In this document: piece by piece, positions 23,272 to 34,013 of the stretch | How positions within the stretch are numbered: the stretch's first letter is position 1 | How the letters are laid out: every line of letters begins with the position of its first letter | NCBI GenBank assembly: GCA_035249885.1 | Contig: DATFFV010000103.1 | Span: 1 to 34,013 of the forward strand | Origin: Gammaproteobacteria bacterium | GTDB lineage: Bacteria > Pseudomonadota > Gammaproteobacteria > Steroidobacterales > Rariloculaceae | DNA length: 34,013 nt | Reading direction: 5' to 3' | Notes under the pieces: model-generated | Database searches by the model: none | What the model was told of the DNA's origin: nothing | What the model saw: the letters and a program-made list of their open reading frames with translations, nothing else | Translations under genes and position numbers: made by a program

Positions 23272-24735
23272 ATGACGGACCAAGTGGGTATCAGCGGCTT
23301 TGCCGTCTACGTGCCGCCTTACCGAGTCGACCTCGAGTCATGGTGTCGCTGGACCAACAACGTCTGGGACAAGACCCGTGCCGTCGTCGGTCACAGCTTC
23401 AGGATGCGCGGTCCCGCGCAGAGCGTCTACACCATGGCGGCCACGGCCGTCATGCGGCTCATCGACCGTTACGACGTCGATCCGTCCCGGGTCGGCTTCC
23501 TGGCGTTGGGCACGGAATCGAGCACCGACAACTCGGCCGGTGCCGTGATCGTCAAGGGCATGCTCGACGAAGGCCTCCACGCGCGGGGGCGCCCGCCGCT
23601 GGCGCGCCACTGCGAAGTCCCCGAGGTCAAGCACGCGTGCCTCGGCGGCGTCTACGCCTTGAAGCACGCCCTGCGCTATCTGGCGCTCGATACGGACGAC
23701 CGCTGTGCGATCGTCGTCAGCGCCGACATCGCCGAGTACGCGCGCGGCAGCTCGGGCGAGCCGACGCAGGGCGCCGGCGCCGTCGCGATGCTCGTCGAGC
23801 GCAACCCGAAGCTGCTCACGATCCATCTCGAGCACATCGGCAGCGCCTCGTCGTATCGCGCCGTCGATTTCCGCAAGCCCGTGCTCCGCAACATCATCCG
23901 CGGCAAGCTCAACTGCCATTTCCAAGATTTGCCGGTCTTCAACGGCAAATATTCGACGACGTGTTATCTCGACGAGACGCTGCACGCGCTCAACGACATG
24001 GCCCGGCGCATGGGCCGCGACCCGTCCGACTACTATCGCGAGCTCGCCGCCATCTTCATGCACCGTCCTTATCACCGCATGCCGGAGCAGTCGTTCGCGA
24101 TGAGCTACTTGTTCGGCCTGGCGCAGGATGGCGCACGCGGCCGCGAGGAGCTCGCGCAGCACTGCGGGCGCGCCAACATGCCCGTCGCGGCCGTGCTCGA
24201 GGAAATGCGCTCGCAGCCGAACATCCTGCAGTTCGTCAAGGACGGCAACATCGACGCCGACGCTTATCCCTTGAGCATCCAGCTGCTCAAGGAATTCCGG
24301 AACAGCAAGGAGTTCAGCGCGCTCGTCGCGGCGAAGATGTCGCTCGGCTCCGAGCCCATGAAAGACATCGGCAACGTCTATTGCGCAGCGCTGCCGGCGT
24401 GGATGGCGGCCGGGCTCGAGGACGCGCACGTGCGCGGCGCCGACCTCGCGGGACGCAAAATGCTCGCGGTCGGCTATGGCAGCGGCGACGCCGCCGAGGC
24501 GCTGCCGATGACCGTGGCCAAGACCTGGCGGCAGGCCGCGGCCAAGATCGGCTTCGAGGCCGCGCTCGAGCCGTATCAGGATCTCACGCAGGCGCAATAC
24601 GAGAACCTGCACGACACCGGCACGGCGCAAGGCCTGCACGATCCCGAAGAGGGCTTCGTGATTCAGTCGATCGGCAGCAGCGCGAACGCGAAGTTCAGCG
24701 ACGAGGGCATCGAGTACTACCGCTTCGTGCGCTGA
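23272..24735 (+). CDS. mvaS: Hydroxymethylglutaryl-CoA synthase family protein (long form, 487 aa)
   Basis: HMGS-like catalytic elements are present: LGTESSTDNS (Glu), KHACLGGVYAL (Cys), FMHRPYHRMP (His), IGNVYCAALP, VGYGSG. Mevalonate-pathway genes lie nearby. Confidence 0.75.
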   Translation: MTDQVGISGFAVYVPPYRVDLESWCRWTNNVWDKTRAVVGHSFRMRGPAQSVYTMAATAVMRLIDRYDVDPSRVGFLALGTESSTDNSAGAVIVKGMLDEGLHARGRPPLARHCEVPEVKHACLGGVYALKHALRYLALDTDDRCAIVVSADIAEYARGSSGEPTQGAGAVAMLVERNPKLLTIHLEHIGSASSYRAVDFRKPVLRNIIRGKLNCHFQDLPVFNGKYSTTCYLDETLHALNDMARRMGRDPSDYYRELAAIFMHRPYHRMPEQSFAMSYLFGLAQDGARGREELAQHCGRANMPVAAVLEEMRSQPNILQFVKDGNIDADAYPLSIQLLKEFRNSKEFSALVAAKMSLGSEPMKDIGNVYCAALPAWMAAGLEDAHVRGADLAGRKMLAVGYGSGDAAEALPMTVAKTWRQAAAKIGFEAALEPYQDLTQAQYENLHDTGTAQGLHDPEEGFVIQSIGSSANAKFSDEGIEYYRFVR

Positions 24736-24750
24736 GCGCGTTCCAGCCGC

Positions 24751-33226: not shown

Positions 33227-34013
33227 GGACGCCGCTCCGCGCGCTGCTGCACTACCAGGCCGTGCTCGGCCAGCGAGACGTTGATCACTCGAAAACCCCG
33301 ATCCGTAATCCGCTTCGTGAATGCTGCGAGCGATTCGCTATCGGTGGCACACGCGAGGCCGAGATCGCCCCCACCGGCACCGCTGACCTTGTAGGCGACG
33401 CCAAACCGCCGCGCCTCGTCACCGATCTGCAGATGCTCGGCCGTGACGACCTCTACTCCGATCGCTTCCCCCAAATCCCCAAGACTGCGGCCATAGGCCG
33501 CGAACGCCTCGATCCAGGCGGCGGCATCGTCCCCCCGAGCCGCCGCGCAGCCGGCCTCCGCGAGCGCCGTCAGGCGGCGCAGCAGCGCCGCCGCTTCGGC
33601 CGGCCGATTCAGGCGCCAGGCCCGATAGTGCGCAACCAACTCGGGCGTCGAGGCGGACCGGCCAGCAAAAATACCCGCGAATCCTACACCCTTCGGCAGG
33701 CGGACTGAACCAACTTGGGGCACGCCGGCCGCGTCGAGACTGAATCTGATCGCCCCCCCCGTGTAGCTCGCGGCCACGTCGAGGCCGCTGCCCCTACCCC
33801 CTTGGAACGCCCTGTGCAGGTCGATGAGCCTCGCTAGATCCAAGTCCGCGACGGGCCGGCCTTGGCCACGCGCGAACGCGGCAAACGCCCCGGCCCAAGC
33901 GCAGAGCACCGCCGCGCTCGACCCGAGCCCAAGCTTCTCGCGGCCCGCGAACAGCGCGCGCGAATCGATGCTCGCGGTCCAGGGCAGCGGCGGTGTGACG
34001 GCCGCAGTCACGA
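33223..34013 (-). CDS. Phosphomevalonate kinase (GHMP family), 5' end outside the window
   Basis: GLGSSAAV (GHMP motif II) lies only about 30 aa from the window edge, so the N-terminus is missing. There is also a KVSGAGGGDLGLA motif III. The stop overlaps the ATG of the HMGR::MVK fusion (ATGA at 33223..33226). Confidence 0.65.
   Translation of the reverse strand, partial: VTAAVTPPLPWTASIDSRALFAGREKLGLGSSAAVLCAWAGAFAAFARGQGRPVADLDLARLIDLHRAFQGGRGSGLDVAASYTGGAIRFSLDAAGVPQVGSVRLPKGVGFAGIFAGRSASTPELVAHYRAWRLNRPAEAAALLRRLTALAEAGCAAARGDDAAAWIEAFAAYGRSLGDLGEAIGVEVVTAEHLQIGDEARRFGVAYKVSGAGGGDLGLACATDSESLAAFTKRITDRGFRVINVSLAEHGLVVQQRAERRP

Follow-up and report, generated by a model that had tools for sequence, protein, structure and literature searches.

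A mevalonate operon flanked by hopanoid genes in a conserved gammaproteobacterial gene neighbourhood

Introduction

How a bacterium supplies hopanoid synthesis with isoprenoid precursors, and how closely the supply may be tied to the product, are questions raised by contig DATFFV010000103.1 of the gammaproteobacterial assembly GCA_035249885.1 (Rariloculaceae), on which genes of the mevalonate pathway are interleaved with hopanoid (hpn) genes. The methylerythritol phosphate (MEP) pathway was reportedly discovered through hopanoids, by Rohmer and colleagues, and to our knowledge every hopanoid producer studied uses it. A preliminary description of this DNA had proposed a dedicated mevalonate-derived isoprenoid supply wired to bacteriohopanepolyol production. 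The stretch analysed here, hereafter the window, comprises positions 1 to 34,013 of the contig. Its array is read here as the terminal part of an isoprenoid-lipid supercluster conserved in Gammaproteobacteria, in which mevalonate would probably act as the general supply of isopentenyl diphosphate (IPP) and would be co-expressed with the main lipid sink of that supply.

Gene calls were tested against curated family models (Pfam, NCBIfam/TIGR) with their bit cutoffs. Relatives were gathered by a scan with the fusion protein described below, at one genome per species, which returned at least 587 stretches with full-length relatives. By record title these are Gammaproteobacteria, save for some metagenome-assembled genomes (MAGs) labelled Rhodospirillaceae or Rhodospirillales. 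The loci L001 to L080 are the best 80 of these at least 587 matches, and L081 is a metagenome contig.

Mevalonate and hopanoid genes of the window

The array reads, along the minus strand, PMK-like kinase, HMGR::MVK, idi, hpnH, hpnB, a gene for a secreted protein, azlC, azlD and hpnM, with a convergent HMG-CoA synthase gene at its end. Its mevalonate and hopanoid members are:

33223 to 34011, minus strand: phosphomevalonate kinase (PMK)-like GHMP kinase with a GHMP_kinases_N match; truncated at its 5' end by the window boundary, with about 85 codons missing
30950 to 33226, minus strand: fusion of class II 3-hydroxy-3-methylglutaryl-CoA (HMG-CoA) reductase and mevalonate kinase (HMGR::MVK), a single open reading frame of 758 amino acids (aa)
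30385 to 30960, minus strand: idi, type 1 isopentenyl-diphosphate isomerase; TIGR02150 at 155 bits (cutoff 106), NF002995 at 161 bits (above cutoff)
29249 to 30364, minus strand: HpnH, radical-SAM adenosylhopane synthase; TIGR03470 at 553 bits (cutoff 225), DUF3463 and Radical_SAM domains, CNLACSGC motif
27904 to 29052, minus strand: HpnB, putative hopene-associated family-2 glycosyltransferase; TIGR03469 at 417.9 bits (cutoff 379)
24751 to 25386, minus strand: HpnM, MlaC-like periplasmic lipid-binding protein tied to hopanoid clusters; TIGR03481 at 159.0 bits (cutoff 160.1), Pfam MlaC at 110.9 bits
23272 to 24735, plus strand: HMG-CoA synthase (HMGS); Pfam HMG_CoA_synt_N at 62.8 bits and HMG_CoA_synt_C at 35.2 bits, both above cutoff

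The reductase part of the fusion protein matches TIGR00532 at 415 bits (cutoff 260; residues 6-389) and the kinase part matches TIGR00549 at 234 bits (cutoff 163; residues 454-726), the two being joined, in the window and in L001 to L080, by a basic linker of about 20-30 aa. TIGR00532 carries the name 'hydroxymethylglutaryl-CoA reductase, degradative', and were the reductase degradative and of the NAD type, the locus would be a mevalonate-utilisation operon similar to mvaAB of Pseudomonas mevalonii. This name spans the class II family and does not prove the direction of flux. Moreover, the reductase is fused to MVK and flanked by PMK, idi, HMGS and, in relatives, diphosphomevalonate decarboxylase (MVD), and HMG-CoA lyase was not found in the window. 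Mevalonate catabolism was rejected on the fusion, the biosynthetic neighbours and the lack of a lyase match in the window, and is barely tenable as an account of this locus.

The truncated PMK-like gene has TIGR01220 (phosphomevalonate kinase) as its top model, at 58 bits (cutoff 166). Every close relative has the gene placed between MVD and HMGR::MVK, and it is this position that suggests its assignment. For HMGS, the closest solved structures are the HMG-CoA synthases 5hwo, 5hwp and 5hwq (E=3.5e-34); its hAClGG motif, with the catalytic Cys, lines up with that of 5hwp. NCBIfam equivalogs are matched under their cutoffs, which points to a divergent clade of the enzyme, and the gene keeps the same position in all relatives of the window's clade. 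The GTG start of hpnB at 29052 matches the ATG-ACG start in relatives.

The family models and coordinates bear out the gene series first described for the minus strand, namely a partial PMK, HMGR::MVK, idi and hpnH running with overlaps or a 20-nucleotide (nt) gap: PMK and the fusion overlap by 4 nt, the fusion and idi by 11 nt, and the gap between idi and hpnH is 20 nt long and includes AGGAG. Likewise upheld is the HpnM/MlaC-like protein followed by a convergent HMGS, with 15 nt between the two stops. The proposed co-transcription of idi and hpnH also fares well, as the short gap contains a ribosome-binding site (AGGAG) and no terminator-like site was seen between the genes; judged from the sequence, the two are almost certainly co-transcribed. 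Neither MVD nor squalene-hopene cyclase (SHC; shc/hpnF) was found in the 34-kb window, in agreement with the earlier placing of both outside it, and no MEP genes were found in the window.

The array in relatives and past the window end

Six loci, L002 to L007, encode fusion proteins with 83-90% identity to that of the window, and of these L003 to L007 extend furthest upstream. Their array reads farnesyl diphosphate synthase (FPPS, divergent), squalene synthase (SQS), HpnG-like, HpnN, HpnA, MVD, PMK, HMGR::MVK, Idi, HpnH, HpnB, HpnM, HMGS (convergent) and DUF7009. MVD is found in all close relatives; in L003, at the syntenic position, it scores 285 bits with TIGR01240 (cutoff 171). In the same locus HpnN scores 828 bits (cutoff 752), HpnA 478 bits (cutoff 368) and the HpnG-like nucleosidase 142 bits, under its cutoff of 187. 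Because MVD lies just upstream in close relatives, the decarboxylase is expected immediately past the window end.

The single SQS-like gene of the relatives has TIGR01559 as its top model, at 91-107 bits and under cutoff, and the HpnC and HpnD models give only weak matches in these relatives, such that synthesis of squalene by HpnCDE was not encountered. In the clade of the window, no shc was met over the 10 kb examined, and the gene may lie elsewhere in the genome. Among the loci, SHC adjoins the cluster in L059, L065, L071 and L079 only; in the Wenzhouxiangellaceae loci L059 and L065, FPPS, SQS and SHC (TIGR01507, 788 bits) stand directly before MVD. In Dyella and Nevskia loci, hpnA and hpnIJKL are the upstream partners. 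Thus, of the genes that the preliminary description had pointed to beyond the window edge, the relatives supply the decarboxylase; a single-enzyme SQS takes the place of hpnCDE, and shc is not met within the 10 kb covered in the clade.

Two relatives have particularities of their own. L026, a gammaproteobacterial MAG, carries a second, inverted HMGR::MVK-Idi pair about 4 kb upstream of the first (3307-6097 and 10001-12792), and the HMGR part of this second copy looks degraded. L006 encodes, at 17414-19084 on the minus strand, a 556-aa LuxR-type helix-turn-helix regulator between hpnM and HMGS, seen among the relatives in this locus only.

Conservation of the idi-hpnH linkage

Sixty-eight loci reach far enough to be informative on what follows idi. 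In 32 of them hpnH comes directly after it on the same strand, and in the remaining 36 the mevalonate operon lacks hpnH at this place. Carriers of the linkage include the cultured Dyella monticola, D. psychrodurans, D. flava and D. dinghuensis, MAGs of Nevskia/Sinobacteraceae and of Wenzhouxiangellaceae, and the window's own clade; hpnB follows hpnH in 26 loci. The same gene order is thus found in 32 independent genomes at 50-94% protein identity, and its recurrence across lineages makes the adjacency far more than chance, an explanation that was rejected on this count. In pairwise distances, the fusion protein is correlated with HpnH (Pearson r = 0.93) and with HpnB (r = 0.94), as would be expected if the block diverged as a unit. 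On these comparisons, the linkage of mevalonate and hopanoid genes is evolutionarily conserved, and not a product of chance.

The linkage is also modular. Four loci of the window's own clade, L008, L012, L014 and L015, keep FPPS-SQS-MVD-PMK-HMGR::MVK-Idi-HMGS-DUF7009, and both hpn blocks (hpnG-hpnN-hpnA and hpnH-hpnB-hpnM) are cleanly absent, such that SQS adjoins MVD and Idi adjoins HMGS. As read from gene order, these four genomes have lost, or never gained, both blocks. A neighbour-joining tree built from the fusion protein places these and other hpn-less forms at scattered points inside the hpn-positive branch. The tree has a second large branch, Chromatiales- and Woeseia-like, in which hpnH never follows idi. 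The operon likewise occurs without hpnH after idi in the Wenzhouxiangella loci L057, L062, L070 and L078.

General or dedicated isoprenoid supply

The core of the supercluster would be a classical mevalonate operon (MVD, PMK, HMGR::MVK and idi, with HMGS nearby) that converts acetyl-CoA-derived HMG-CoA to IPP and dimethylallyl diphosphate. Hopanoid blocks would abut this core on both sides, with hpnH, hpnB and hpnM downstream, inside the window, and the hpnG-like gene, hpnN and hpnA upstream, past its end, where the single-enzyme SQS and the FPP synthase would flank the block. Joint transcription is probable, since the genes share one direction and lie close to each other, and precursor synthesis would then rise and fall with the synthesis and export of bacteriohopanepolyol side chains. 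The mevalonate pathway would be the main or only IPP source of the cell, the MEP pathway having been displaced in the lineage, and hopanoids would be its largest co-regulated sink and not its sole purpose.

Three lines of evidence make a general IPP source the most likely role: the hpn-less sisters, the presence in the relatives' cluster of an FPP synthase with no dxs beside it, and the existence of mevalonate-only carriers. For the last, a 2026 survey counts Dyella caseinilytica, Wenzhouxiangella and Woeseia among mevalonate-only organisms, assigns the MEP pathway alone to Dyella telluris, D. thiooxydans, Frateuria, Luteibacter and Steroidobacter, and credits one Rhodanobacter species with both pathways (PMC13001223, Table S1). 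The Wenzhouxiangella-specific gene set of mevalonate pathway and squalene synthase (PMC7691419) also fits a general supply. Where mevalonate is the only route, quinones and undecaprenyl phosphate must be fed by the operon as well. On this reading, the genome of the window would lack the MEP pathway.

The dedicated supply first proposed would have the MEP pathway retained for essential isoprenoids and the mevalonate genes acting as an accessory module for bacteriohopanepolyol synthesis, for which Streptomyces offers a precedent (PMC13001223; PMC7591250). It draws on the tight coupling of idi and hpnH, on the mevalonate genes being sandwiched between hpn genes in close relatives, and on their patchy distribution in Rhodanobacteraceae, where the survey gives MEP alone for D. 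telluris, D. thiooxydans, Frateuria and Luteibacter and the two pathways side by side for one Rhodanobacter. The fusion tree, in which Dyella stands beside Nevskia, would further fit transfer of the block. However, mevalonate genes were not lost along with the product genes: the hpn-less sister genomes retain the entire mevalonate/FPPS/SQS skeleton, and in over half of the informative loci the operon is present and hpnH does not follow idi. The scoring of cultured carriers as mevalonate-only and the cluster FPP synthase without dxs beside it also speak against an accessory role. Accordingly, the coupling that was first described holds and its dedicated character is not supported, a private supply being rather unlikely.

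A variant of this proposal allows for mobility. MVD-PMK-HMGR::MVK-idi-hpnH-hpnB, with variable additions of hpn genes, SQS and SHC, could form a self-sufficient module leading from acetyl-CoA to bacteriohopanepolyols that moved horizontally between gammaproteobacterial orders, for instance from Nevskiales-like donors to some Dyella. In some hosts, possibly including that of the window, it would then be a private hopanoid supply beside the MEP pathway, and in others it would have replaced that pathway. We consider this doubtful, if conceivable.

Several points weigh against a mevalonate pathway that serves as general supply and is co-expressed with hopanoid synthesis. Proportions drawn from the 80 loci, which are the top-ranking ones among at least 587 matches, are no census. 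With no shc met inside 10 kb in the clade of the window, hopanoid production is a prediction from the accompanying genes. The Rhodanobacter species with both pathways means that dual-pathway carriers exist in the neighbourhood. HpnM, the HpnG-like gene and the PMK-like gene score under their curated cutoffs. Finally, a 196-nt spacer with a very stable hairpin, together with three inserted genes, may divide the array of the window into several transcripts.

Insertions into the array of the window

The features that interrupt the hopanoid block in the window are:

29070 to 29244, no strand assigned: palindromic element of 175 nt, filling the hpnH-hpnB spacer
26533 to 27792, minus strand: secreted 419-aa protein with a signal-peptide-like N-terminus and sub-threshold TPR and TonB_C matches
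25766 to 26470, minus strand: AzlC, branched-chain amino-acid exporter subunit; Pfam AzlC at 116 bits
25437 to 25766, minus strand: AzlD; Pfam AzlD at 76 bits; start overlaps the azlC stop by 1 nt

The preliminary description had hpnH followed by an HpnB-like glycosyltransferase, a TonB-C-like protein and azlCD. The genes are indeed there; the TonB-C-like label is weak, and the secreted protein and azlCD do not belong to the conserved neighbourhood. In the N-terminal part of the secreted protein TPR_12 matches at 21.7 bits, under cutoff, and TonB_C matches at 15.7 bits (E=0.021), also under cutoff and only in a scan restricted to the C-terminal 82 aa. Neither this gene nor azlC nor azlD has a counterpart in any of the 80 genome loci, in which hpnM directly follows hpnB or hpnH. 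A metagenome search for the secreted protein turned up L081 as its sole relative, a 2-kb soil metagenome contig (Ga0137461_1012158) on which the pair of secreted protein and azlC is repeated at 87-89% identity. By this comparison of gene order, the three genes are a lineage-specific insertion outside the conserved neighbourhood.

The junction of hpnH and hpnB is likewise not tight, its palindrome-filled spacer measuring 196 nt in the window versus about 20-30 nt in L001 to L004. The 175-nt palindrome has 37-nt terminal arms that are 95% complementary and nested 12-nt arms, and its predicted RNA fold has an energy of -137.6 kcal/mol (z = -9.5). The window has a single copy of it and the 81 loci have none, the corresponding spot of L001 to L004 included. 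Rfam at E<=0.1 gave no match in 22500-34013. It looks like a lineage-specific insertion of the MITE (miniature inverted-repeat transposable element) or REP (repetitive extragenic palindromic) type. As the palindrome contains no T-run, it may stabilise, process or attenuate the transcript and not act as a classic terminator. Within the proposed supercluster, the secreted protein, azlCD and the palindrome would all be later insertions into the array.

These interruptions bear on whether the hopanoid and mevalonate genes might be mere neighbours, adjacent without functional coupling and regulated independently. In addition to the structured 196-nt spacer before hpnB and the three-gene insertion before hpnM, such an account can point to the spacing of idi and hpnH, which is about 20-30 nt in the window and its close relatives and widens to 130-170 nt in Dyella and Nevskia. 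Scans for promoters and terminators gave results no better than shuffled sequences. Against independence, gene order is kept across lineages at only 50-70% protein identity, both hpn blocks are lost together from a retained core, the distances of the fusion protein co-vary with those of HpnH and HpnB, and the idi-hpnH spacing of the window and its close relatives is short. Adjacency without coupling is thus quite improbable.

Comparison with known systems

Copies of ispH and dxs are located in several hpn clusters. In the clusters of Alpha- and Betaproteobacteria (Zymomonas, Rhodopseudomonas palustris and Burkholderia), hpnH, hpnB, hpnM, hpnN, hpnA and hpnG are clustered, as they are in the array of the window and its relatives taken together. 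The precursor genes there are MEP genes, whereas here they make up the whole mevalonate pathway; the window's relatives have a single SQS-like enzyme where those clusters have HpnCDE, and shc is not adjacent in the window's clade. Isoprenoid-precursor genes are drawn inside hpn clusters in a published comparison (PMC12583986, Fig. 1b).

Streptomyces mevalonate clusters, situated beside clusters for terpenoids or prenylated metabolites, likewise join a full mevalonate operon to the genes for one isoprenoid product. There, however, the MEP pathway is kept and mevalonate is accessory, whereas the surveyed relatives here are mevalonate-only and the operon persists without the product genes. A closer likeness in gene content comes from another phylum. 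The subdivision-22 acidobacterial MAG 'Mor1' is described as carrying a mevalonate pathway in place of the MEP pathway, and shc, hpnH and one squalene synthase besides, a set that its authors read as bacteriohopanepolyol synthesis 'in a rather different way' (PMC5462960). An interleaved operon and an HMGR::MVK fusion are not described in the text consulted.

Within the Gammaproteobacteria, the mevalonate pathway and squalene synthase have been reported as a Wenzhouxiangella-specific gene set (PMC7691419). The Wenzhouxiangella loci L057, L062, L070 and L078 carry the same HMGR::MVK operon family as the window; they differ from it in lacking hpnH after idi, and that report treats squalene and not hopanoids. 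Mevalonate genes in Gammaproteobacteria, with horizontal transfer, were described by Hoshino and Gaucher, and Frateuria, an MEP-type relative of Dyella, produces bacteriohopanetetrol. Our literature search found no description of an interleaved mevalonate-hpn array, or of an HMGR::MVK fusion in Gammaproteobacteria; the cluster itself occurs in many public genomes, RefSeq records of Dyella among them.

Neighbouring genes and the rest of the window

Next to HMGS, and divergent from it, lies one further gene:

22714 to 23106, minus strand: DUF7009 gene; Pfam DUF7009 at 78 bits

It adjoins HMGS in 13 of the 15 window-clade loci whose sequence continues beyond HMGS, hpn-less ones included, and its membership of the cluster is uncertain. 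A sigma-70-like site lies by this gene at 23131-23104, from a promoter scan whose results did not exceed those of shuffled sequences. The FMN-dependent dehydrogenase at 21462-22664 was considered as a type 2 isopentenyl-diphosphate isomerase and rejected, since it scores only 51 bits where the cutoff is 281; the enzyme is lactate-dehydrogenase-like, and not an isomerase.

The remainder of the window encodes a formate dehydrogenase, molybdenum-cofactor genes, a lactate-dehydrogenase-like enzyme, transporters and a sucrose phosphorylase. At 10284-12647 on the minus strand there is a 449-aa radical-SAM protein with weak viperin-like and TrsS-like matches (about 33-37 bits), followed by a 337-aa open reading frame without a family match. 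An NrtR-type regulator adjoins these genes, and the region is unrelated to the hopanoid cluster.

Significance

If this reading is correct, widespread Gammaproteobacteria of soil, fen and sediment are predicted to make hopanoids from mevalonate by way of one compact array, and cultured Dyella and Nevskia would serve as test organisms for mevalonate-fed hopanoid synthesis. Because the two precursor pathways fractionate carbon differently, the array bears on the reading of hopane carbon-isotope signatures. For the unexplained set of hpnA, hpnB and hpnM it also offers a minimal, modular setting in which sister genomes may be compared for gain and loss, the four hpn-less loci of the window's clade and their hpn-positive sisters forming a natural presence/absence series for the hpn genes. 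The HMGR::MVK fusion, for its part, may serve pathway engineering.

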